From contig JBDGRK010000033.1 of assembly GCA_042218075.1 (NCBI GenBank), positions 1-12,898 of the forward strand: a stretch of 12,898 bases of DNA, written 5' to 3'. This document shows positions 1 to 12,898 of the stretch, piece after piece. Both the position numbers and the translations under genes were made by a program. This stretch comes from Candidatus Nanohaloarchaea archaeon. GTDB lineage: Archaea; Nanohalarchaeota; Nanosalinia; Nanosalinales; Nanosalinaceae. Under the pieces are notes generated by a model. That model had not been told where the DNA came from and ran no database searches. It saw nothing but the letters and a program-made list of their open reading frames with translations. Position 1 is the stretch's first letter, and each line of letters starts with the position of its first letter.

Positions 1-17
1 GAGCTAAATCTCTTTCC

Positions 18-1049
18 ATGGGAGTCGACCTGGGCGAGCTGGTTGAAAGAGAGGATATAGAGTTCGCGGACCTCAACGATAAAGAGATAGCGATCGATGC
101 TATGAACACGCTTTACCAGTTTCTCTCAATAATAAGGCAGAGAGACGGTACACCTCTAAAGGACTCCGACGGGAACATAACCTCACATCTCTCAGGCGTA
201 TTCTACCGGAACATCAAGGTCCTGGAGAACAATATTCGGCCTGTATACGTTTTCGATGGAGAGATGCCCGACCTGAAACAGAAAGAATCTTCAAGGAGGA
301 GAAAAAAGAGGGAAGAAGCCCGGAAAGAGTGGAAGAAGCTGAAAGAGGAAGGAAAGATTGACGAAGCGTTTTCAAAGGCGACCCAGAGCTCAAAGATCGA
401 TGGAGAAATGCTGGAAGAGGCGAAAAAGCTGCTGGAGGCTATGGGTCTGCCTTACGTCCAGGCCCCGAGCGAGGGAGAGGCGCAGGCCGCGTATATGACG
501 AGGGAAGAATCGAAGGGTGATATTTACGCGGTAGGATCTCAGGACTGGGACTGTCTTCTATTCGGGGCTGAGAGAATGGTAAAGAACCTGACCACGAGGA
601 AGACCAGGAAGAAAGCCTCTGGAGGCAGGAAGCAGATCTCGACCGAGCGTATCGAGCTCGGGGAAGTGCTTGAACAGCTGGATATCTCGAGGGAAAAGCT
701 GGTATGGATGGGAGTACTTATGGGGACAGACTTCAACCCTGACGGAGTGAAGGGTATAGGACCCAAGACGGCTCTCAAGCTGGTGAAGAAGTACCAGAAA
801 TTCGATAGCCTGATGGAGGATGAAAAAGTTGAATGGGAGTCGGACAACGACCCCTACAGAATCAGGGACTTCTTTCTTGATCCTCCTGTTGAAGATTCAG
901 GGTACAAATTTAGCGAACCTGAAAACGATAGGATTAAGGAAATACTGATCGATAAACACGACTTCTCCGAGAAAAGAGTGAATTCAGGCATCCAGAATCT
1001 GGAAAAGGCGCTCGAGGCAAGGCAGTCAGGACTCGGCAGCTTTGTATGA
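18..1049 (+). CDS. fen: Flap endonuclease 1 (archaeal FEN1, XPG/Rad2 family)
   Basis: Motifs MGV start, IAIDAMNTLYQFLSIIRQRDGTPL, SHLSGVFYR, VYVFDG, APSEGEAQAA, SQDWDCLLFGA, H3TH GTDFNPDGVKGIGPKTAL, and C-terminal PCNA-interacting PIP box RQSGLGSFV. Confidence 0.97.
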   Translation: MGVDLGELVEREDIEFADLNDKEIAIDAMNTLYQFLSIIRQRDGTPLKDSDGNITSHLSGVFYRNIKVLENNIRPVYVFDGEMPDLKQKESSRRRKKREEARKEWKKLKEEGKIDEAFSKATQSSKIDGEMLEEAKKLLEAMGLPYVQAPSEGEAQAAYMTREESKGDIYAVGSQDWDCLLFGAERMVKNLTTRKTRKKASGGRKQISTERIELGEVLEQLDISREKLVWMGVLMGTDFNPDGVKGIGPKTALKLVKKYQKFDSLMEDEKVEWESDNDPYRIRDFFLDPPVEDSGYKFSEPENDRIKEILIDKHDFSEKRVNSGIQNLEKALEARQSGLGSFV

Positions 1050-2313: not shown

Positions 2314-3393
2314 CTAGTGGTCGTTGAGCGACTCCTTCACCAGGTCGGTCAGCTCCAGCATCATGGAGTACATCTCGTCGAGTTCCGATTCATTATCGTG
2401 TATCCTGGACTCCAGGGCGGCGAACTCCTGATCCATAGCTTCCTGTACCGCCTCCACATCCTGGTCCTCCAGTTCCTCGATGGCCTCCCACAGCATATCC
2501 ATCTTCTGCTCTATATCCTCCAGCCTTTCCTCGGTTCCGGAGTCAATCTCGCTCTCCAGCTCTTCAACCTGCTCATCAAATCCCTCCCACAGTTCATCTA
2601 GCCTTTCCTGCATCTGCTCAATCCTGTGGTCATCCTGATCTGAAAGCTTACTGAGCTGTGTCTCGAGTTCCTCCAGCCTCCTGTCAAAGTTTTCAACCGT
2701 CTCAAGCGATTCCACTTTATCCTCAATCCTTTCCAGTCTATTCCTTATATCACTGTTGTCCTGTAGCTCAAGCTGCTCCACCCTTTTCTCCAGCTCGCTT
2801 AATTTCGCCAGTTCCTTAGACTCACCGGAAACGATCTTTTCCTCAAAGTTTTCGACGTGCGACCTTATCCTCTGCAGCTTTGATTCTTCCTCAGGGTGCT
2901 CTACCCCCGGAGAAGTTATATTTCCTGGTTGAACTTCTTCAGAAAGTTCAGCATCTTCTTCGCTATCCTCCTCAACATCCGGGGTTAATTTATCCTCCTC
3001 GATGTCAGGTTCCGTCTCGACCTCGGGATCTTCCTGAAGTTCCTTCGCCTCTTCTTCAATAGGTCTGGCATCAACATCCTCCCCTGGATCTCTTTCCTCC
3101 CCAGCTTCTTCTATCCCCTGGTCTTCCTGAAGCTCCTGATCCAGGGTTGACTCCTCAATATTCTCTTCGATTGCTTCGGCCTGTCTCTCCATCTTTTCCT
3201 GCTCCTGGCTCAACTGCTCCAGAGATTCCTCCAGTTCCTGCCTCAGCTCATCTCTATCAACCTGATCCGTGTTTTCCCCTTCATCTTTCTCAACTCCCTG
3301 TTTCAGTTGCTCCACCTCCTGCTCAAGGTCGCTATCCTCTTCCAGGTCTTCCTCATCTTCTCCTTTAATCCTCTGTCTTATCGAGGAAAACAT
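2314..3393 (-). CDS. Very acidic coiled-coil hypothetical protein with short basic/amphipathic N-terminus
   Basis: 359-aa ORF; N-terminal MFSSIRQRIKG then E/D-rich; coiled-coil repeats (LSELEKRVEQLE, RLDELWE/KMDMLWE); C-terminal helix loosely similar to that of the neighbouring 405-aa protein. Confidence 0.85.
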   Translation of the reverse strand: MFSSIRQRIKGEDEEDLEEDSDLEQEVEQLKQGVEKDEGENTDQVDRDELRQELEESLEQLSQEQEKMERQAEAIEENIEESTLDQELQEDQGIEEAGEERDPGEDVDARPIEEEAKELQEDPEVETEPDIEEDKLTPDVEEDSEEDAELSEEVQPGNITSPGVEHPEEESKLQRIRSHVENFEEKIVSGESKELAKLSELEKRVEQLELQDNSDIRNRLERIEDKVESLETVENFDRRLEELETQLSKLSDQDDHRIEQMQERLDELWEGFDEQVEELESEIDSGTEERLEDIEQKMDMLWEAIEELEDQDVEAVQEAMDQEFAALESRIHDNESELDEMYSMMLELTDLVKESLNDH

Positions 3394-3415
3394 ATCCTCT
3401 AATTTGATAAGCCAG

Positions 3416-3423
3416 TTATTAAA
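3416..3423. promoter_or_regulatory. Putative shared TATA box for the divergent gpmI and 359-aa genes
   Basis: TTATTAAA (minus strand TTTAATAA) sits centrally in a 53-nt intergenic gap, 23 nt from the gpmI ATG and 22 nt from the ATG at 3393, which is typical spacing for leaderless archaeal transcripts. Confidence 0.55.
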
Positions 3424-3446
3424 CCTGCGGGAAACAAATCCTCTCC

Positions 3447-4901
3447 ATGAGACCGGTGCTATTAGTGGTGATGGACGGAGTTGGACTGAGAGAGCAGACC
3501 GAGGGAAACGCCTTCAAGCAGGCCGAGACGCCGAATATCGGAAGACTGATGGCACGGGAGGGATTTTCAAAGCTGGAAGCGTCGGGAGAAGCTGTCGGCC
3601 TTCCTGAAGGCTACCAGGGCAATTCAGAGGTAGGTCATCTGCACCTGGGAGCGGGAAGGAGAGTTCCGCAGAGGCTCACCCGCATAAACAATGCTATAGA
3701 AAACGATGAGCTACGTGAGAAGGAGGCTCTAGTGAAAGCGCTGGAGAAAGCAAAGCGAAGCGATTCGACAGTCCATCTAGCGGGTATAATCTCGGATGGC
3801 GGAATCCACGGCCATATAGACCATCTTAAAGCGCTGATGGAAATCGCGTCCGATTACGATGTGGATGTCAGGATCCACTGTTTCACCGATGGTAGGGACG
3901 TGGACCCGAAGAGCGCGGAGACGTTTATCCAGAGGGTCGAGGAATGGTGCTCCGAGTACGGCGGGGAGATCTCAACGGTGATGGGCAGGTACTATGCTAT
4001 GGATCGAGACCACAACTGGGAACGTACTCATAAAGCGTACAGGGCGATGGCTGAAGCAGAGGGATTCGAGTTTTCCGACCCGAGAGATGCTCTTGAGGAG
4101 ACATACCAGGAAGGAGACTACGACTACTTCGTGGTTCCCTCGGTAAGTAAAGCTTACGGAGGCATGAAAGATGAAGATGACTGCTTGATATTCTACAACT
4201 TCAGGGCGGATAGGGAGAGGCAGATCGCAGAAGCATTCCTGAAGCCGGGTTTTGAGGAATTTAACAACCCGGTAAGGCCTGACTTCGTATCCATGTTCTC
4301 CTACAGGGATGATTTCGATAACCCGGTAATGTTTGAGAAGAAGCTTGTTGAGGATACACTGGGAGAGAAGATTGAAAACGCGGGTATGTCCCAGCTCAGG
4401 GTGGCGGAGTCGCAGAAGATTCCACACGTCACCTTCTTCTTCAACGGGCAGAGGGAACTAGAGTTTGAAAACGAGGAGAGAAAGTTTATCGAGAGCGACA
4501 AGATCAAGGCGTATGATCAGAAACCGGAGATGCACGCCGATGATACCACCGGTATAGTTCTGGAGGCGCTGGAGGAAGGAAAGAAAGACTTCATACTGCT
4601 GAACTACGCCAACTGCGACCTTGTGGGCCACACGGGAGAGATGGAGGCTGCGATTAAGGCGGTTGAAACGGTGGACAGGAATGTAGGAAGGCTGATGAAG
4701 AAGGTTGAAGATACGGATTACATAATGCTTGTGACCGCGGACCACGGAAACTGCGAGGACATGGGAAGCCCTGAGAACCCGAACACATCGCACACGACGA
4801 ATAGGGTGCCGCTGATCGGTTTCAATACAGAAAGAGAGTTCGGGGACGGAGAGATATGGAAAGTTGAGAGTATTATCGAGGAAATTCTGCTAGACAGCTG
4901 A
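3447..4901 (+). CDS. gpmI: 2,3-bisphosphoglycerate-independent phosphoglycerate mutase, bacterial-type iPGM
   Basis: VVMDGVG, catalytic-Ser motif GNSEVGH, SDGGIHGHIDH, FTDGRD, GRYYAMDRD, NFRADR, HVTFFFNG, NYANCDLVGHTG, TADHGNCE, HTTNRVP. Confidence 0.96.
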   Translation: MRPVLLVVMDGVGLREQTEGNAFKQAETPNIGRLMAREGFSKLEASGEAVGLPEGYQGNSEVGHLHLGAGRRVPQRLTRINNAIENDELREKEALVKALEKAKRSDSTVHLAGIISDGGIHGHIDHLKALMEIASDYDVDVRIHCFTDGRDVDPKSAETFIQRVEEWCSEYGGEISTVMGRYYAMDRDHNWERTHKAYRAMAEAEGFEFSDPRDALEETYQEGDYDYFVVPSVSKAYGGMKDEDDCLIFYNFRADRERQIAEAFLKPGFEEFNNPVRPDFVSMFSYRDDFDNPVMFEKKLVEDTLGEKIENAGMSQLRVAESQKIPHVTFFFNGQRELEFENEERKFIESDKIKAYDQKPEMHADDTTGIVLEALEEGKKDFILLNYANCDLVGHTGEMEAAIKAVETVDRNVGRLMKKVEDTDYIMLVTADHGNCEDMGSPENPNTSHTTNRVPLIGFNTEREFGDGEIWKVESIIEEILLDS

Positions 4902-5132
4902 AATATTTCTTCCCCCTGATTCCCTAAAACTGTTGCCGCTAGTATCACCCGAATCCTGCTGTTCACTATCAGGCAATACATCCGAGTTCCCGGCTTTATC
5001 TTTAGCATTTGACTTGGTCTCGTCCAGGAAGTTGCCGAAACTGTCGGTCTGTCCCTGCACAAGGAAGAGAACTATTAAAGCGGTGACAAGCGCGATCATC
5101 GCCACTACTACGATTTCGATAGTCTTGTCCAT
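4890..5132 (-). CDS. Small pilin-like protein with N-terminal hydrophobic helix (no basic leader)
   Basis: MDKTIEIVVVAMIALVTALIVLFLVQG resembles the hydrophobic segment of the two upstream pilins (TAL..IF.VQG). Starts 6 nt after the upstream pilin stop; 3' end overlaps gpmI convergently by 12 nt. Confidence 0.75.
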   Translation of the reverse strand: MDKTIEIVVVAMIALVTALIVLFLVQGQTDSFGNFLDETKSNAKDKAGNSDVLPDSEQQDSGDTSGNSFRESGGRNISAV

Positions 5133-5138
5133 CCTGGA

Positions 5139-5432
5139 TCACTGGGGAATCTGCGAGCAGCTCACTTCCGCATCCGGGCTCTGTGGAATCCACTGTGGAA
5201 CGCCCGGAGCAGGCTGGCCGTCCTGGTGACAGGAGATAGGTGTTGAAACTGTGCCGCTGGTAGTAGAGCATTTTGCGTTAATCGTCTGGACGCAGGATGA
5301 AGAAGACGTACCCTTGCCTACATCTCCGAGGCCTCCCTGGACCATGAAAATAACAGTGAGAGCAGTCATCATCAGTACGCTGGCTGCCACGATCAGTGCC
5401 AGAGTCTGCGACATTCCTGCTCTCTTGACCAT
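5139..5432 (-). CDS. Type IV pilin-like protein (class III signal peptide), four Cys
   Basis: MVKRAG|MSQTLALIVAASVLMMTALTVIFMVQGG: basic leader, Gly at -1, hydrophobic helix. Four Cys in the globular part; clear paralogue of 5485-5778. Confidence 0.85.
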   Translation of the reverse strand: MVKRAGMSQTLALIVAASVLMMTALTVIFMVQGGLGDVGKGTSSSSCVQTINAKCSTTSGTVSTPISCHQDGQPAPGVPQWIPQSPDAEVSCSQIPQ

Positions 5433-5463
5433 AGATTAAATTTGAAGAGCTCTACTTAAAAAA
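5433..5463 (-). promoter_or_regulatory. Putative leaderless promoter of pilin gene at 5432
   Basis: Minus strand TTTTTTAAGTAGAGCTCTTCAAATTTAATCT directly precedes the ATG, with a TATA-like element about 22-30 nt upstream. Confidence 0.5.
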
Positions 5464-5484
5464 TCTAACCGGAGTAGACGGACC

Positions 5485-5778
5485 TCATCCTCCACCGAGA
5501 ACTGTTTGACATTCCACACTCGCGCCGACACTGCTGGCGTGACCATTCATCACACCTACAGCATTCCCTTCGCTGTCGAAACAAGTCGCAGGAGCTGAAA
5601 TCGAACCGCCTCCCGAACACTTTGCCTGGACCACCTTGAGACATCCGCTGTTGCTTATACCGGTCCCGGTATCGCTGAGGCCTCCCTTCACTATGAATAT
5701 CGCTATCAGCGCAGTCATCATCAGTACAGTCGCGGCGATTATCAGCGCTATAGACTGCGACATCCCTGAACTCTTCAT
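5485..5778 (-). CDS. Type IV pilin-like protein (class III signal peptide), four Cys
   Basis: MKSSG|MSQSIALIIAATVLMMTALIAIFIVKGG; same four-Cys pattern (C..AKC..P..C..V.C) as 5139-5432. Confidence 0.85.
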   Translation of the reverse strand: MKSSGMSQSIALIIAATVLMMTALIAIFIVKGGLSDTGTGISNSGCLKVVQAKCSGGGSISAPATCFDSEGNAVGVMNGHASSVGASVECQTVLGGG

Positions 5779-5808
5779 ACCGTAAACTTGGAGACTCTGT
5801 ATTAAAAA
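5779..5808 (-). promoter_or_regulatory. Putative leaderless promoter of pilin gene at 5778
   Basis: Minus strand TTTTTAATACAGAGTCTCCAAGTTTACGGT directly precedes the ATG and resembles the element before 5432. Confidence 0.5.
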
Positions 5809-5829
5809 TGAAACGTGGAAAAAGTGGAG

Positions 5830-6114
5830 TTACTGGTCCTGCGAGAGATCGATCTGGATCGAAGAAACGTTCAGTTTGTCACCCTCGTCAGTGTCTATCT
5901 GGTCAGTGTCTATTGAAATGTCTTCAACTTCTGCTGTCTCCTCGAACTTGCTCCTGACCATCTCCGCGACGTCTACAGCCCTTGAGATTGCTTTTCCTCT
6001 TGCCTTGACGTGGACTGTTTCGTGTCCCTCGTTGAACTGTGTCACCACAGCCAGAACGTAGCTCATCGCGGGTTTGGAACCGACGTATACTGTATTGTCG
6101 TCATCTTCTGCCAT
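5830..6114 (-). CDS. albA: DNA/RNA-binding chromatin protein Alba (Sac10b family), acidic variant
   Basis: [39 protein letters not shown] and NVSSIQIDL match Alba signatures; 94 aa. Confidence 0.95.
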
Positions 6115-6167: not shown

Positions 6168-7208
6168 TCACTCGAACTCATAGCTAAACGGATCGACAAG
6201 GAACCCGAGATGCTTCCTGCCCTTATTGGTCAAAACCTGTTTTTTCTCATCCCTCAACTCGATAATCCCTTTGGCACTCTCCAGAGTGAGTTTTACATCT
6301 GCATCGTAGTCTGTTTCACAGCCATAAGTCTCGGTACTGCCATCCGGGAGAGTTCTGGTTTCACAGTCACAGGAGTCGGGTTCAGAGTCCACATCAGGAG
6401 ATCCCAGGTTTGAAACTGACTTAACTCCTTTTTTACTTACTTCAATACCTTCTGGAAGCTTGCTGTAGCTCTTGATAGCTGAAGTCATTGAAGAGTAAAG
6501 ATCTCTCTTGGCGCTGGATGTTGCATCGCTTTCTGCTTCCGAGACAGCTGCACTCCTGGAACCGCAATCACTTCCGCTCCCGGTATATTCAGAACCTGCT
6601 TTCGACTTCCAACTCGAGAATATTTTCCCGACAAGGTTCGATGTGTGTTTCGCCATCTTAACGTACCTGTTGGCGTCGTTCTCAACCGAGTACTTCTTCT
6701 TGACAGGCACGTAGGTCTCTGTGTACCCCGAGGAGCATCTAAGGCTTTGATCCGAGATTTTAGATGTAAAGTGTCTCTCCTTTACCCAAGATGTCACGTC
6801 CTCTTTCTGCTCGAACTTCACACCGGTAGAACCAATTCTCGGGCTGCGGCAGCTCATCACCTGCATCTGCCCTCTCAAGTGGTTCTCCACACCCGAAAAG
6901 TATTCCTGCTTCAACTTCCCCGGCTCTGGAGGACTGTTCTTCCAGCTTATGTCATATCCTCTCTTGTAATCTCCTGCTTTTTCACCCAGCCTGAAAGCCA
7001 TGATATTCGCTGAATAGTTTAGTTCTGGCCCCATCCTTCTCTCGTACTGGTCAGCCTTGAGCTTTGTCTCGGCTATAACGTTGTAATCACCCGTATTATA
7101 CCTTACAGTGTCCTGGATAGGCTCGTTGACCGCTATGATCGTCACAAAGGCACCTGACGTAAACACGAGCATCAGTATCGCAGGTATGGTCAGGGCTCCT
7201 CTTCTAAT
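6168..7208 (-). CDS. Membrane-anchored/pilin-like surface protein, Cys-containing; start uncertain (ATG 7172 or non-canonical ATT 7208)
   Basis: The frame is open upstream of ATG 7172 to a TAG at 7221-7223 and reads ..IRRG|ALTIPAILMLVFTSGAFVTIIAV, a class III-like signal. The body is S/T/K-rich with several Cys (DSCDCETRTLPDGSTETYGC). Confidence 0.75.
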   Translation of the reverse strand: MRRGALTIPAILMLVFTSGAFVTIIAVNEPIQDTVRYNTGDYNVIAETKLKADQYERRMGPELNYSANIMAFRLGEKAGDYKRGYDISWKNSPPEPGKLKQEYFSGVENHLRGQMQVMSCRSPRIGSTGVKFEQKEDVTSWVKERHFTSKISDQSLRCSSGYTETYVPVKKKYSVENDANRYVKMAKHTSNLVGKIFSSWKSKAGSEYTGSGSDCGSRSAAVSEAESDATSSAKRDLYSSMTSAIKSYSKLPEGIEVSKKGVKSVSNLGSPDVDSEPDSCDCETRTLPDGSTETYGCETDYDADVKLTLESAKGIIELRDEKKQVLTNKGRKHLGFLVDPFSYEFE

Positions 7209-7920: not shown

Positions 7921-8393
7921 CTTCCGGGACCCGGTCCTGCACCTGTAACAGTGCTGGATATCCTTGATTTTTGGTACAAACCCAGCTGGTAAAAACCACT
8001 ATCCTGCGAATCATCCCGCGAGTATAGAGGGGCTTGCAGTGTCAGAGCTGAGAGAAATGTCCTGGAACATTTTCCATCGCCCATTCCGACTCCGAGGAAT
8101 TCACCCTCTCTCATTCCTGGAGCAGGATAGTCGCATACACCCGAGTCTTCACTTATTCTCTTCTCCAGCTTCGACTTCTCCATCCTGCCGAACTCGCCGT
8201 TCTGGTTGGCTATCTTGAATATGCCTGCGGTCCTGTAGCCGTTCACCTGTAGCCCTGCCTTGGAAAGGTTTGACTTCTTCTCAATAATGCCGAATAGAGT
8301 TCCTAGAACCAGAGATATCAGGAAAATAATTATTACCAAACCTATCGCCTCCGGCAGAACCTTTCTAAGAGTCAAAGCCGCATCCCTCGACAT
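7917..8393 (-). CDS. Membrane-anchored surface protein with N-terminal hydrophobic helix; possible TTG start at 8375
   Basis: RKVLPEAIGLVIIIFLISLVLGTLFG helix, two Cys; overlaps both neighbours; GAGGG lies upstream of TTG 8375. Confidence 0.72.
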   Translation of the reverse strand: MSRDAALTLRKVLPEAIGLVIIIFLISLVLGTLFGIIEKKSNLSKAGLQVNGYRTAGIFKIANQNGEFGRMEKSKLEKRISEDSGVCDYPAPGMREGEFLGVGMGDGKCSRTFLSALTLQAPLYSRDDSQDSGFYQLGLYQKSRISSTVTGAGPGPGR

Positions 8394-8805
8394 TAATAGA
8401 AAGCTTCTTTGAGTTTTTTACCACGCATAGCTTATCTGTCAGACCGGTCTGGTAATCAAAACCTACAGGCGGGTTTATCCGGTGTTTCGCGGTCTGGCCG
8501 AGTATCGGTACCTTGACCGATCCGGCAGAATACTTCAGGAATACTTTTCCATCTTTCTCCACCACTTCATAGTCATCCTTGAACTCTATCTGGGTTTTGC
8601 CCTCCTCCAGCCCGGACATCATGTAGATGGTGGATTCCACCCTCTCCGCCGGCACTTCCACAGTATCCACCCTGATCTTGTCCGGCACAGCCTTCGTGGC
8701 ATTGTTGGCTATAGCAAGCACCATTATACCTGCAACTATCATCACCACGTATATTACGACAGTCAGCTGGTTCTGACCCTTCCCCACTTTACTCCACCGC
8801 ACCAT
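8365..8805 (-). CDS. Type IV pilin-like protein (class III signal peptide); possible GTG start at 8787
   Basis: KVGKG|QNQLTVVIYVVMIVAGIMVLAIA is a KG|Q cleavage motif common in archaeal pilins; C-terminal Cys pair (LCVVK..EGC). Confidence 0.8.
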   Translation of the reverse strand: MVRWSKVGKGQNQLTVVIYVVMIVAGIMVLAIANNATKAVPDKIRVDTVEVPAERVESTIYMMSGLEEGKTQIEFKDDYEVVEKDGKVFLKYSAGSVKVPILGQTAKHRINPPVGFDYQTGLTDKLCVVKNSKKLSINVEGCGFDS

Positions 8806-8857
8806 ACAGAAAACGAAAAGTTTTCAATCCCGTAAACATGTATCCCTGATGGAAAAG

Positions 8858-8896
8858 CTCTGAATAAAACTGTTGGGAAAACCCTGATTTACTTCA
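8858..8896. repeat. 39-nt direct repeat copy 1 (gene end, stop codon and downstream intergenic/promoter region)
   Basis: ctctgaataaaactgttgggaaaaccctgatttacttca; 38/39 identical to 10156-10194. Confidence 0.93.
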
Positions 8897-9791
8897 GTTT
8901 AGTCCTATCAGAGTACTTGACTTTACCATCCCTATAACACCGGAAGTAGATCTCCTGGCCACTTTTCATAATCGTATTGTAATTATTGTAGCCGTATTCA
9001 TTGCTATTTCCATCACTGTTGGTATCCCCACCACTTTGCATCTCCCCTTTTTGATCATTGTCATCGAAACCGTCCGAGCCAGCATATTCTTTATTCTTGT
9101 ACTGGTCATCGTCCCAGATGCACATATCTGCATTACTAGGTAGCTGAATCCTCAGATCAAGCCTGGAGTCGCACTTGATAATAGTGATATCATTACTTCC
9201 ACAGCCAGTTGAACTTCCTCCAGAATCTCCGCCTGTATCACCTGAAGAACCAGAACCATCATCAGAGCTTCCACCAGAACCGTCGCCAGTATTTCCTCCA
9301 GCCGAGCCACTTTGTCCAGAGCTTTCGCCAGATCCTCCCGAACCACCATCACTTCCAGATCCATCGCCAGAGCCGTCTGATGTGGATTCAGCCGTAACAT
9401 AGCTTACTTTTACTTCCTTTTTCGCTGTCCGCGTTATCTTATAGGTTGTACTTGTAGAGATTCTGACATCGAGTTTTATCTTATTGCAGCCAGGAACCTC
9501 CTGCTCGAAGACTTCAACTTCTTTTCCTCCCTTTAAAGAATTCAAGACCAGAATATTTTTCTCTTTAACCTCAATAGTTTTCCCATCCGGTATCCCCAGT
9601 CTGACCGAACCTTCATCCCTGTAACCCGTGCATACCTGATTCAGTCTATTCTTTAAATCCTTAACCGCGTCTTCGCCCTTGTTCAATTCCCCTGAACCTG
9701 TAAAATTTTTTACAAGTCCGTTGACTGCCGCCATGCCTACGAGCACGAATACTGTGCTCACAATCAACGCTACTACCTCCTTGCCATCCAA
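8889..9791 (-). CDS. Pilin-like surface protein: TM helix, Cys-pair domain, long G/S/D linker, C-terminal four-Cys domain
   Basis: TTG start with strong SD GAGGTGA (9805-9799); MDGKEVVALIVSTVFVLVGMAAV helix; ~60-aa Gly/Ser linker; C-terminal domain homologous to that of 10187-11332. Confidence 0.85.
   Translation of the reverse strand: MDGKEVVALIVSTVFVLVGMAAVNGLVKNFTGSGELNKGEDAVKDLKNRLNQVCTGYRDEGSVRLGIPDGKTIEVKEKNILVLNSLKGGKEVEVFEQEVPGCNKIKLDVRISTSTTYKITRTAKKEVKVSYVTAESTSDGSGDGSGSDGGSGGSGESSGQSGSAGGNTGDGSGGSSDDGSGSSGDTGGDSGGSSTGCGSNDITIIKCDSRLDLRIQLPSNADMCIWDDDQYKNKEYAGSDGFDDNDQKGEMQSGGDTNSDGNSNEYGYNNYNTIMKSGQEIYFRCYRDGKVKYSDRTKLK
9190..9224. repeat. 35-nt direct repeat copy 1 (encodes SGGSSTGCGS at domain border)
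   Basis: 9195-9224 acttccacagccagttgaacttcctccaga is 30/30 identical to 10508-10537; 34/35 with extension. Confidence 0.93.
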
Positions 9792-10012
9792 ACGGCAGTC
9801 ACCTCGATTAATTCGTGCCTGAAAAAGGAGTTGCTCTGCTCAGGGCAGTTTTTATCCTTAACCGGGTTGCATCCTACTACACCCTTGCTGTTTTCGCTCC
9901 CGAATATGTAGCCGGTTCCCTGCTTGTAACCTCCCTTCACGAACACTACAGTCAGCAGGAGCACTATTATCGCGAGAACTATTCCAACTATGACCCCTAC
10001 CTCCCTGTTCAA
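9773..10012 (-). CDS. Small pilin-like membrane protein (likely TTG start at 10012; ORF track uses GTG 10024)
   Basis: MNREVGVIVGIVLAIIVLLLTVVFVKGG helix, Cys pair (GCNPVKDKNCP); TTG overlaps the TGA of the upstream 42-aa gene (TTGA), with GGGGTGG upstream. Confidence 0.75.
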   Translation of the reverse strand: MNREVGVIVGIVLAIIVLLLTVVFVKGGYKQGTGYIFGSENSKGVVGCNPVKDKNCPEQSNSFFRHELIEVTAVWMARR

Positions 10013-10137
10013 GAGGGAATCCACCCCAGCATTGTCTGCTCTCCACCGGAGATGTAGGTGTTGGCCATGAACGCAAGTATCAGCAGAACCGCCACACCTA
10101 TAACAATTGAAACAACCAGATTTATCGAAATCTCCAT
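10009..10137 (-). CDS. 42-aa mini pilin-like protein not in the ORF track
   Basis: Manual translation: MEISINLVVSIVIGVAVLLILAFMANTYISGGEQTMLGWIPS*. It fills the gap, has a TATA-like TTTTATT 23 nt upstream of its ATG, and its stop overlaps the next start. Confidence 0.8.
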   Translation of the reverse strand: MEISINLVVSIVIGVAVLLILAFMANTYISGGEQTMLGWIPS

Positions 10138-10155
10138 ACTCTTGGAATTGAAGAT

Positions 10156-10194
10156 CTCTGAATAAAACTGTTGGGAAAACCCAGATTTACTTCA
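10156..10194. repeat. 39-nt direct repeat copy 2
   Basis: ctctgaataaaactgttgggaaaacccagatttacttca; one mismatch versus 8858-8896. Confidence 0.93.
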
Positions 10195-11332
10195 TTTCAG
10201 TGTTGACGGAAACACTCGTATCTTTTTCGTCACCTTCATAACACCGGACATATACCTTCTCTCCACTACCTAACCCGGATGAGGTTTCATGATACTCATT
10301 AGCAATACCGTCTTCATTCGTATCTCCCTCTCCTTCCATCAAACCAAATTTACTCTGGTCATTATAAGCATTTTCCACGTCGTTTTTAGGTTTCCCAGCA
10401 TATCTCTCATTCTTATATTTGTCATCATCCCAGATACATTCATCAAAAGATTTGTCAAACTGAACTCTCAGGTTTTCCGGGGCACACTTAATAAACGTCT
10501 CCTCATCACTTCCACAGCCAGTTGAACTTCCTCCAGAGGAAGGAGATACCACTTTAACAGTCTTAGTTGTTTTATCATTTCCACCGGAGGCAACTACTTT
10601 TAGAGTAACCTTCTTATCACCTGAGTTTTCAAACTTATGATTAACTTTTTTACCGCCACCTTCAAACGTTTCATCGCCGGTCCATTCCCATTTGTATTCA
10701 TCTATACTTCCCCCCGAAGGAGCTGAGGACGATTCCGCATCGAAAGTAACTTTCTCTCCAACCTCTGGATTTGATGGTGTAACACGGAAATCGGCTTTAA
10801 GTCCTGAACTTCCTCCTGAGAGGTCAGGAACAGACTTGGTTTCCTCGTAGTAGTCTCCACCGCCAGCGGTGAACCTGGCCCTGACTTTCTCTCCCGGTTG
10901 TAGATTTGCACTTTCTGCTGTCACACTGCATTCTTTCTGGTCTCCACAGTCAGCGTTACCGAAGTTTGTGGTTCCCTTGTAGAGAGAAGCACTGGCAAGA
11001 GAAACCTGTCCAGAGGCCGTCGCCTTTACTGTATACTTATCACCGTTCTTGTTGATATCGAAGCTGATCGTCACACTACCGGAGGATTCACCTGAACCAC
11101 CGGTTCCAGCGCCTCCACCGCTGAACTTTTTCCTGGCTTCTCTCAGTTCTCCAGCCACGCTGTCCTTCCCATCCGTATACTGATCGTCCAGCTTGCTCGC
11201 CTTCTTAGTAAGGGGATCAAACTGGGAACCTATCGCGGAAATAATGAACAGTATCATCAGCACCGCCACCACCACACCTATTACACTTCCTATAGAATCC
11301 AGTCCCTTGCTCTCCCCGATTTCCACTTCCAT
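10187..11332 (-). CDS. Pilin-like surface protein: class III signal, Ig-like domain, PKD domain, C-terminal four-Cys domain
   Basis: SKG|LDSIGSVIGVVVAVLMILFIISAIG; PKD-type ADFRVTPSNPEVGEKVTFDAESS..IDEYKWEW..VNHKFENSGDKKVTLKV (about 10549-10801); C-terminal domain shared with 8889-9791. Confidence 0.88.
   Translation of the reverse strand: MEVEIGESKGLDSIGSVIGVVVAVLMILFIISAIGSQFDPLTKKASKLDDQYTDGKDSVAGELREARKKFSGGGAGTGGSGESSGSVTISFDINKNGDKYTVKATASGQVSLASASLYKGTTNFGNADCGDQKECSVTAESANLQPGEKVRARFTAGGGDYYEETKSVPDLSGGSSGLKADFRVTPSNPEVGEKVTFDAESSSAPSGGSIDEYKWEWTGDETFEGGGKKVNHKFENSGDKKVTLKVVASGGNDKTTKTVKVVSPSSGGSSTGCGSDEETFIKCAPENLRVQFDKSFDECIWDDDKYKNERYAGKPKNDVENAYNDQSKFGLMEGEGDTNEDGIANEYHETSSGLGSGEKVYVRCYEGDEKDTSVSVNTEMK
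10503..10537. repeat. 35-nt direct repeat copy 2 (encodes SGGSSTGCGS)
   Basis: Matches 9190-9224 at 34/35. Confidence 0.93.
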
Positions 11333-11393
11333 AATAGAGTATTCTCCAGCTCAGGCTAAAAAGGTTGTCAAAATATATTTTCCCGGAAAACGA

Positions 11394-12898
11394 TTAACTG
11401 CACCTCCTCTTGATTTTAGCACTCTTAATCTTGACTTTAGCTTTAGAGTTAGTGGTAAGTCTGTTGAGGAATATATTTACCGTTCCAGGTGAGCTTTGCA
11501 TTTTAAATGGTTCTCCACCAAACGCTATTTTGTTTTGTTTGAAGTCGATGTTTACCTTGAAATCTCCTTCTTTTGCGATCTTTTTCCCTCTAACATAGAC
11601 ACCATCATTCCTAACTTTCGCACTATATTGTTTTTCTTTAATGAAAAACCCAAGGATGGCCTTTTCTGAAGCCGGACCCACTTTCACTGTGAGAGATTCT
11701 GTAGTATCAAGATCGGTTTGATCATAGCTTACCTCAATAGCATCCCCGTATTCTTTAGATTCCAGTACCAACCCATCGCTTTTTTCCTCTATAATTCCAG
11801 TATCTGGATTCCTAACTACTTGGTACTGGTCAAGTACGCTGAAGCTGTCCAGGCATTTCTCCGCAAACCATCCCGGCTTATAGTAATCTAATTCATGTGA
11901 CTTTCCACTGTGTTTCACGCTTGTAGTCTTGCTTTCCAGGCCACAGCTCAGCTTAACCTGCTCGCCATTGATTTTCATCTCATTAGAGCTTCCACTGCTC
12001 TTGTCTCCACTGCTCAGAGCCTTCTCCAGATTACATTTGCCAACGGGATCAGGATTCTTCGGCAGGTCATTCCCGAGAAACTCTCCACTTGCTCTTTCCC
12101 CGCCACCATTTATACAGGATCCCCCGCTTCCAGTTATCTCGATCTTCGGGAAAACAGCATTTTCTACAAGCGGTCTGACCTTATCACCTCCGACATCATC
12201 ACCGTTTCCAATATCTTTTGCATTACTCTGTATGAAACCTTCAGCATTTTTACAGAAAACATACCGGGCATTTTCCACAAATCTCTCAAATCTTCCCTCT
12301 TTGTCTTTGTTTCCAGTTCCCCCTTCTTTAATCCTCCATTCTTCAGGATTCTTATCCGCTGGAAGTACTTTTGGCACACTCTTCATTCTGACCCTGTAAT
12401 AGTAGAGCTTCTCATGTCCGGAATCTAGTTTCCCGGTTCTGTACTGTCTTGCCCCAGAACCTTCAAAGATTCCTTGTGCTCCATATGATTCGTAAAAATC
12501 TTCGTTCTTGAATCCTTCATCATTATAGAGTTCGTGGAATTTGGGATCATCTACTTTATAACTAATTCCTGCTGGAAGGAAAGCAGCTATTCTCTGGCCT
12601 TTCCAGAAATCTGGATATTTAGGGCTCCTTATAATAGGGTAAAGATCCATTGCCAGAAGCTTCTCCCCGTGACCAGAATTATCCGGATAATCGTATCCTT
12701 TTTCAACAAGAACATCCTGATCGTAGTCACCATCGTTTATTATGAACTGTTTGTTGATCTTGAAGAATACCCTTCCAAATCTCCCCTCCATATCGTTCTC
12801 TGATTGAGGCCCTCCTCCTCTCAGAGGATTCACCACATTTAAGGCATCATCAACCGGGTTCAGATCTACCGGGCTAGATCCCGCACAGAGTCCTGAAA
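11394..12898 (-). CDS. Large hypothetical, probably extracellular Cys-containing protein; 5' end lies outside the window
   Basis: The frame has no stop from GTG 12836 to the window edge (SGLCAGSSPVDLNPVDDALN precedes it). Several Cys, G/S linkers, beta-rich C-terminal ~150 aa; co-oriented with the pilin array. Confidence 0.8.
   Translation of the reverse strand, partial: SGLCAGSSPVDLNPVDDALNVVNPLRGGGPQSENDMEGRFGRVFFKINKQFIINDGDYDQDVLVEKGYDYPDNSGHGEKLLAMDLYPIIRSPKYPDFWKGQRIAAFLPAGISYKVDDPKFHELYNDEGFKNEDFYESYGAQGIFEGSGARQYRTGKLDSGHEKLYYYRVRMKSVPKVLPADKNPEEWRIKEGGTGNKDKEGRFERFVENARYVFCKNAEGFIQSNAKDIGNGDDVGGDKVRPLVENAVFPKIEITGSGGSCINGGGERASGEFLGNDLPKNPDPVGKCNLEKALSSGDKSSGSSNEMKINGEQVKLSCGLESKTTSVKHSGKSHELDYYKPGWFAEKCLDSFSVLDQYQVVRNPDTGIIEEKSDGLVLESKEYGDAIEVSYDQTDLDTTESLTVKVGPASEKAILGFFIKEKQYSAKVRNDGVYVRGKKIAKEGDFKVNIDFKQNKIAFGGEPFKMQSSPGTVNIFLNRLTTNSKAKVKIKSAKIKRRCS

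Follow-up and report, generated by a model that had tools for sequence, protein, structure and literature searches.

The 12,898-nt contig JBDGRK010000033.1 (C27, analysed at its full length and hereafter called the window) belongs to a metagenome-assembled genome of a Candidatus Nanohaloarchaea archaeon (GCA_042218075.1; 1,103,323 nt in 40 contigs, 47% GC, 92% complete) and harbours, within a pilus-like operon, two genes (A and B) whose products have unrelated N-terminal parts and share a C-terminal tip domain of about 110 residues. The interior of this domain is old and diverged, while the short stretches of DNA bordering it (the 5′ and 3′ boxes) are nearly identical in the two genes. The explanation favoured here, at a probability of about one half, is that the tip is a grafted module whose borders would be scars of ordinary recombination, acting on an evolutionary or population timescale, instead of working parts of a dedicated machine; a recombination event of this kind is proposed from the pattern of identity between the two copies.

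Genes A and B, their boxes and the neighbouring genes and motifs described with them lie on the minus strand. The tip opens with the ten residues SGGSSTGCGS, the first of its cysteines among them; these are encoded by the 5′ box (9195-9224 in gene A and 10508-10537 in gene B), which is identical at 30 of 30 positions. Its ten codons (4 Ser, 4 Gly, 1 Thr and 1 Cys) agree without exception, an outcome that two independent encodings of the same residues would reach with a probability of about 1e-6 under the codon usage of this genome. The 3′ box (8858-8896 in gene A and 10156-10194 in gene B) comprises the last two codons, the stop codon (8889-8891 and 10187-10189), a T-tract and a TATA-like TTTTATT (8863-8869 and 10161-10167); it is identical at 38 of 39 positions, with a single mismatch at 8885/10183. 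Over the 69 nt of the two borders, the 5′ box thus has no change and the 3′ box one. The identities given in the original prediction, which included the synonymous positions of the 5′ border and the stop codon and intergenic DNA of the 3′ border, were reproduced exactly. Downstream of the 3′ box the identity between the copies drops to about half, with the spacing to the ATG kept. Each box occurs exactly twice in the assembly (up to 6 mismatches allowed, both strands searched). Both boxes are repeated in direct orientation, without any inverted pair to link them; the original remark that direct repeats are present with no recombinase in view agrees with the absence of any integrase-family match on C27.

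Between the boxes, the picture is different. The tip interiors span 101 codons in gene A (8892-9194; local GC 0.40 against a genome mean of 0.47) and 106 codons in gene B (10190-10507; local GC 0.39). By BLASTP, the two proteins are similar in the C-terminal tail alone (42% over 91 residues, E=1e-19), with nothing significant in the rest, and a MAFFT alignment of the shared domain, which has four conserved cysteines, gives 47% identity with the box counted and four indel events. The earlier reading by eye, namely unrelated N-termini with homologous tails and an interior roughly 40% identical with indels, is thereby borne out. At the DNA level, 162 of 294 interior positions are identical (55%), as are 42 of 98 third positions, and the same codon is used in 20 of the 39 conserved columns of degenerate amino acids. 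Nei-Gojobori counting over 98 codons yields a pS of 0.78 and a pN of 0.38; dS could not be computed, because synonymous sites are saturated. Orthologues compared with congeners (Alba, FEN1 and iPGM) show a pS of 0.68-0.85, and since the saturation of the tip interiors matches that of these congener orthologues, the genus is no older than these interiors. A sliding window along the copies, the substitution comparison proposed at the outset, shows synonymous saturation inside and abrupt edges of identity on both sides.

Uniform divergence after a duplication is therefore excluded, given a saturated interior between borders with 0 and 1 changes, and the argument that a simple old duplication cannot leave the borders alone intact holds at an interior pS of 0.78. 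The borders need either recombination or an unusual constraint. Patches of near-identity in synonymously saturated paralogues, as found here, are also a mark of ordinary interlocus gene conversion; patches of only 30 and 39 nt, whose outer sides are without homology, are unusual for it.

The proposed grafting concerns gene A (8889-9791; 300 residues, probable TTG start), which consists of a hydrophobic N-terminus with a stem of about 135 residues (approximately residues 1-135, 9387-9791), a Gly/Ser/Asp linker of about 55 residues and the tip domain. At its position, all four congener loci carry a gene of 139-144 residues with a layout like that of gene A (a hydrophobic helix followed by VN.VC, EV.C, YK and V.VS); in all four this gene is without linker, tip or intergenic module, and the next gene directly adjoins or overlaps it. 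Gene A has no Pfam or NCBIfam match, and the sequence of its stem was found in none of 40 relatives. An AF2 model of the stem (pLDDT 65) shows a helix followed by a beta-sheet. Among the 50 structural neighbours listed for it, 15 are type IV pilins or pseudopilins, with a best Z of 4.2, which is under the noise bar of the tool; PDB 7b7p (PilB) is one of these weak neighbours (Z 3.5), and Foldseek with the same model returned nothing at E<=0.001. The stem is called pilin-like on account of its context and layout. Neither protein A nor protein B has a Pfam or NCBIfam pilin match, and hydrophobic N-termini are visible in both.

Gene B (10187-11332; 381 residues) encodes a hydrophobic N-terminus, a beta-rich region, a PKD domain (residues 182-261; Pfam PKD_4 E=9.4e-10, PKD E=1.6e-7) and the tip. 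Its PKD region alone matches, within much larger proteins, 25 of 40 other genomes, and the part outside the PKD domain has no match in the 40 relatives. An extra module after the putative pilin part is thus present in both proteins, as linker and tip in A and as PKD domain and tip in B. Furthermore, the 12-mer GGAGGAAGTTCA, which encodes GGSS and recurs in the tip borders, has a third copy at 10805-10816 in the linker ahead of the PKD domain of gene B; it is present three times in the genome, always inside genes A and B, which hints that such linkers mark the joints between modules.

The 3′ box is probably a stop codon and T-tract combined with a promoter that drives the next gene, as judged from its motifs. 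A genome-wide profile upstream of ATG codons (A at -34 to -32, T at -31 to -26, A at -25 to -23 and A at -11/-10) indicates archaeal BRE/TATA promoters on leaderless transcripts, and TTTTATT lies 23 nt ahead of an ATG in both copies of the box. In copy B, this ATG (10137) opens a hydrophobic open reading frame (ORF) of 42 residues (10009-10137, from translation), where a leaderless transcript would begin and where the congeners have a gene of 67-76 residues. In copy A, the ATG at 8839-8837 opens a 16-codon ORF, and the start of p146 lies 34 nt beyond it. The latter gene (8365-8805 in the ORF list) is a conserved operon member, with homologues detected by tblastn in two of the four congener loci and a positional counterpart in all four. 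The promoter reading suits a module added within an operon in which the genes overlap elsewhere. The box and the DNA that follows it share the motifs TTTTCC, TTTTAWW and an AGAG.TCTTCAA-like element with the upstream regions of pil97a and pil97b (two 97-residue pilin genes) and with the region following p480. This last region holds an older, diverged module of stop codon, T-tract and TATA-like element at 11333-11396, between p480 and gene B, which alignment shows to have the same motif order. As a separate observation, five intergenic regions of the locus (within 5139-5778, and at 8806-8900, 10140-10198 and 11333-11405) share a T-tract, TTTTAWW and the AGAG.TCTTCAA-like motif, the last of which follows the TATA-like element and precedes the start codon; the common set may represent a locus-specific promoter class or a regulator site.

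Relatives of the tip were sought widely. In the genome itself, tblastn finds the tip twice only, in genes A and B, with no orphan tip, and none of 60 related genomes carries a relative; the suggestion that further box copies or orphan cassettes might exist in the genome and its relatives was thus not upheld, as nothing beyond A and B was recovered. A word search of 5.8 billion proteins (near and shorter lengths) retrieved protein B itself only, as one of 58 candidates, while a two-sequence profile run against 1.84 billion representative proteins retrieved A and B only. JGI metagenome contigs, searched with peptide patterns and a 27-nt box core, gave neither a tip relative nor a box; GTDB genome contigs and viral contigs, searched with peptide patterns and the exact box DNA, gave nothing beyond A and B; phage records, plasmid records, PDB sequences and ESM Atlas features gave no tip relative. 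Proteins A and B have no match among toxin families. An AF2 model of the tip reached a pLDDT of 47.7 and was not used for that reason, and the structure rows obtained for the tip from the ESM Atlas were generic beta-sandwiches below the naming bar. The conserved GDTN.DG..NEY of the tip presumably resembles a calcium-binding loop. Because all these collections were blank, the tip is regarded as an orphan domain for which public data show no pool of alternative cassettes, bearing in mind that blank searches for the tip or the boxes do not prove absence.

The arrangement was also examined in independent assemblies. Many contig ends of the reference assembly overlap by exactly 55 nt; the assembler word therefore exceeded the box length, and repeats of 30-39 nt were not ambiguous in it. 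In a k=31 assembly made independently from the probable source run, a single contig of 15,679 nt contains the whole stretch without any difference. A further run from another study (X2) contains 85% of the sampled words, and 13 of its 15 matching pieces are at least 99% alike; its record 5 (8746-9034) runs through the 3′ box of gene A and into the DNA on either side. The possibility raised earlier that the boxes could be an assembly artefact is contradicted by these three observations.

Record 6 of X2 (451 nt, depth 4.59) is of particular relevance, as it joins 9474-9195 to 10507-10337, that is, the stem and linker of gene A and the 5′ box to the tip interior of gene B, the 30 letters of the box fitting either side; a swapped combination of this sort had been anticipated in the original prediction. 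Logan contigs derive from a k=31 graph of counted k+1-mers in which words seen once are discarded, and only contigs above 150 bp are reported (PMC12424806). Loss of the two genuine junction words at a depth of about 4.6 could then lead to a link between two contig ends that share a 30-mer. No listed X2 piece covers 9035-9194 or 10508-10553, so none spans the 5′ box in the reference arrangement, which is not evidence of its absence. None of the listed X2 pieces has a corresponding joint at the 3′ box, and record 6 shows no doubling of depth. The odds that record 6 is a real recombinant and not an artefact are roughly even. The pieces of another run (X3) do not reach the tips, a fourth run (X4) gave no matching piece, and no RNA run is listed among those that contain the sequence. 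One X3 contig of 220 nt, from a slightly different strain (8638-8857), stops one base short of the 3′ box of gene A, where there may be a branch point or a loss of cover.

According to the mechanism proposed, A and B would be two subunits of a type-IV-pilus-like apparatus, each showing the same kind of four-cysteine, acidic end domain of about 110 residues on a flexible Gly/Ser linker, and this end domain would probably be the part that touches the host or a surface, with a putative adhesive function. The travelling module would consist of the 30-nt SGGSSTGCGS start, the variable interior, the stop codon and the intergenic piece with T-tract and TATA-like element, the latter presumably restarting transcription of the next operon gene. 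It would have been grafted onto stem A after the split from the congeners, and the same module would also end gene B, a species-specific gene. The two interiors would be old, separately evolved alleles and the borders young and identical, such that homologous recombination with crossovers within the two short borders may have brought in a diverged tip allele between them; alternatively, the module may have been copied from a different allele of the other gene. In either case, the boxes would serve as homology arms through ordinary recombination. Mosaics of this kind are common in surface-protein genes under diversifying selection. The original idea of the boxes as homology arms is therefore retained in part: the mosaic and the one swapped X2 contig speak for recombination, while the lack of further cassettes and boxes in the collections searched and of a recombinase in the window, together with a plausible ordinary role of the 3′ box, speaks against a dedicated cassette system.

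Several points weigh against this account. No donor or third allele was found in anything searched, and the allele pool that it requires is hypothetical. With exact runs of 30 nt and of 27+11 nt, the boxes are about as short as, or shorter than, what efficient homologous recombination is generally considered to require. The X2 joint falls exactly at a repeat of k-1 length (30 nt) in a k=31 assembly, and the tips in X2 are, where covered, the reference sequences, with no alternative interior seen; the check for chimeras thus produced one contig joining stem A to tip B, possibly an artefact, and no new interior. Stem A is only marginally related in sequence to the congener genes at its position (hhalign E=0.005, probability 6.9%). 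Lastly, the promoter score of the box is moderate by a crude weight matrix, in the top 7.5% of random positions and at the 42nd percentile of gene upstream regions.

The recombination account has to be weighed first against function alone, whereby the 3′ box would be held as a terminator-promoter and the 5′ box by a role at the RNA or DNA level, with no recombination involved. The T-tract and the TATA-like element at a genome-typical distance from the ATG, as well as the motifs common to other intergenic regions of the locus, fit this proposal. Nevertheless, other intergenic regions of the same layout (those following p480 and at pil97a and pil97b) are far more diverged, so that function does not demand 38/39 identity, and this identity is taken to reflect recency, not function. 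Further, the 25 nt upstream of the TATA-like element, identical at 24 of 25 positions, have no counterpart in the pilin promoters. The 5′ box yielded neither a structure nor a signal: its two copies fold differently as RNA, neither fold being unusual (z -0.37 and +1.32), Rfam gives no match, and the codon agreement described above would be left to chance. Constraint alone is thus an unlikely cause of the border identity.

In a rival reading, the boxes would be dedicated sites of a programmed or high-frequency cassette exchange that swaps tips between the stems or with a cassette pool and thereby changes host or virus recognition. The boxes bracket the variable domain exactly, the single X2 contig has its stem A/tip B joint at the 5′ box, and in another system the 17-bp direct repeats of vlsE matter for gene conversion (PMC11756760). 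These points are opposed by the occurrence of two copies only, both in full-length genes, with neither silent or orphan cassettes nor any further box found; by interiors that are 55% identical and hence too distant for segmental conversion; by a window without a recombinase gene (integrase-family matches lie on other contigs, none on C27); and by the lack of a listed X2 joint at the 3′ box to match the one at the 5′ box, which may itself be a graph artefact. Such programmed exchange is accordingly considered quite improbable. It is similarly doubtful that the boxes are selected homology arms which move a host-recognition tip between two pilus subunits, or import the alleles of other cells, with the X2 contig as a real recombinant.

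Targeted hypermutation, in which a recent duplication of the module was followed by scrambling of the DNA between the boxes by a mutator, is very improbable. The very sharp boundaries between intact borders and saturated interior would suit it, and the genome does encode a reverse transcriptase (contig C29); yet differences occur at all four bases, together with four indel events, and lack the adenine specificity of diversity-generating retroelements, no template-like copy of the tip exists anywhere, the C29 repeats are unrelated to the tips and have few, non-A-specific differences, and the X2 tips equal the reference where covered. A diversity-generating retroelement was accordingly ruled out, as the differences are not adenine-specific, indels are present, a template copy is lacking and the reverse transcriptase lies elsewhere beside unrelated repeats. 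The C29 region is of note in its own right: an ORF with a reverse-transcriptase domain (PF00078, 42 bits) is accompanied by four intergenic repeats of about 105 nt (region 2353-4636 and 4930-6003), which are 95-97% identical with differences that are not adenine-specific, and for two of the copies no Rfam family was found. Equally remote is a mis-assembly of strain variants as the source of the boxes or the tandem layout, since, even in a metagenome-assembled genome of 40 contigs in which C27 ends in graph junctions, the assembler word was longer than the boxes, the k=31 assembly is identical, record 5 spans the 3′ box of gene A, and allele collapse cannot produce the arrangement because the stems and the downstream genes are unrelated.

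The wider setting is consistent with a pilus-like operon. In the ORF list, small genes whose products have hydrophobic N-termini follow one another on the minus strand between 12,836 and 4,890. Exact 55-mers at window positions 1-55 and 12844-12898 are shared with contigs C13 and C18, and a 55-nt overlap joins C27 to C18, which carries the remainder of p480, a small pilin-like gene and a T2SSF-like platform protein. The latter, a polytopic protein of 712 residues, is 68% identical to its congener counterpart, which matches T2SSF at E=4e-5 with 24.0 bits, just below the 25.2-bit cut-off; it is located upstream in the congeners as well. In the four congeners, the order is platform protein, small pilin-like gene, p480 homologue of 630-640 residues (split into ORFs of 206 and 426 residues in the congener G003), 67-76-residue gene, 76-80-residue gene and 139-144-residue gene, followed by the counterparts of p146 and p158, the p334 homologue, Alba, pilin-like genes, iPGM and FEN1. 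The best-matching sequencing run carries the label “salt lake metagenome”.

Apart from the tips, other genes of the locus have diverged strongly. The products of p334 and p480 (6168-7172 and 11394-12836) are only 24-32% identical to their same-genus counterparts (loci L022-L025), while in the same comparison FEN1 is 77-79% and Alba 90-93% identical; because p334 and p480 fall so far below FEN1 and Alba, the whole pilus-like operon is considered to evolve extremely fast. In addition, one X2 contig shows eight substitutions and one insertion within 11350-11404 and is unlike the window beyond 11435, and X2 record 8 fits the window from 11801 and is preceded by 107 unlike letters. The C-terminal part of p480, about 120 residues, is the lowest-GC part of the window (0.35-0.38), and it may be represented by a second, very different allele in the X2 sample (window 11350-11801).

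Nanohaloarchaea depend on contact with host cells, and their pilins are mostly unannotated (PMC9563170). The locus offers a concrete route by which a nanohaloarchaeon may build and vary its contact surface, namely an orphan end domain grafted onto different pilus subunits as a self-contained module with its own putative downstream promoter, and its sharp recombination borders could permit the exchange of tips. If this exchange proves true at the level of reads, it would offer a way to test how host range changes in DPANN archaea; and if the boxes are true homology arms, they would constitute a minimal recombination system with two expression sites that retargets the adhesin of an archaeal symbiont. 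A word of caution applies to public data in general: a 30-nt repeat equals k-1 in public assemblies built at k=31, and swapped junctions found there require confirmation from the raw reads.

Comparison with known systems helps to place the locus. The original prediction had likened it to the PilV shufflon and to the exchange of CdiA/Rhs C-termini. The shufflon (PilV/Rci) uses inverted sites with an adjacent recombinase, whereas the repeats here are direct and C27 has no integrase-family match. CdiA-CT/Rhs proteins have a short conserved motif at the point where their exchangeable C-terminal domain begins, a position comparable to that of the 5′ box; those systems, however, have toxin domains, immunity genes and orphan modules, while here the tips are followed by conserved operon genes, with no orphans and no toxin match. 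In the pilin system pilE/pilS of Neisseria, short conserved coding segments delimit the variable regions, as does a conserved repeat immediately downstream of the stop codon, much like the 3′ box. That system depends on numerous pilS donors that lack promoters and on dedicated cis elements; nothing of this kind was seen here, where the variable part is a whole appended domain instead of loops of the pilin. To our knowledge, a module common to two different pilins with conserved DNA borders has not been described.

Measured against systems of the vls/pilE type, the bounding sequences are present (30/30 and 38/39), while in place of a silent donor library the 92%-complete assembly holds two tips. 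The vls system likewise has short conserved repeats at both ends of the variable segment of a surface protein, which recur with each copy and matter for gene conversion (PMC11756760). It combines a single expression site with about 15 silent cassettes of about 90% identity and a segmental, unidirectional conversion. The present locus differs in having two expressed genes, no silent copies, an interior identity of 55% and two boxes that are unlike each other. Among pilins, the modules of the PilB type are known folds (vWA), whereas the pilin status of A and B is deduced from their context. With this difference, the putative display of a grafted end domain by A and B finds its parallel in the bimodular type IV pilins, of which PilB of Streptococcus sanguinis likewise carries a bulky functional C-terminal module on a pilin, displayed on the filament for adhesion (10.1101/2021.01.27.428410).

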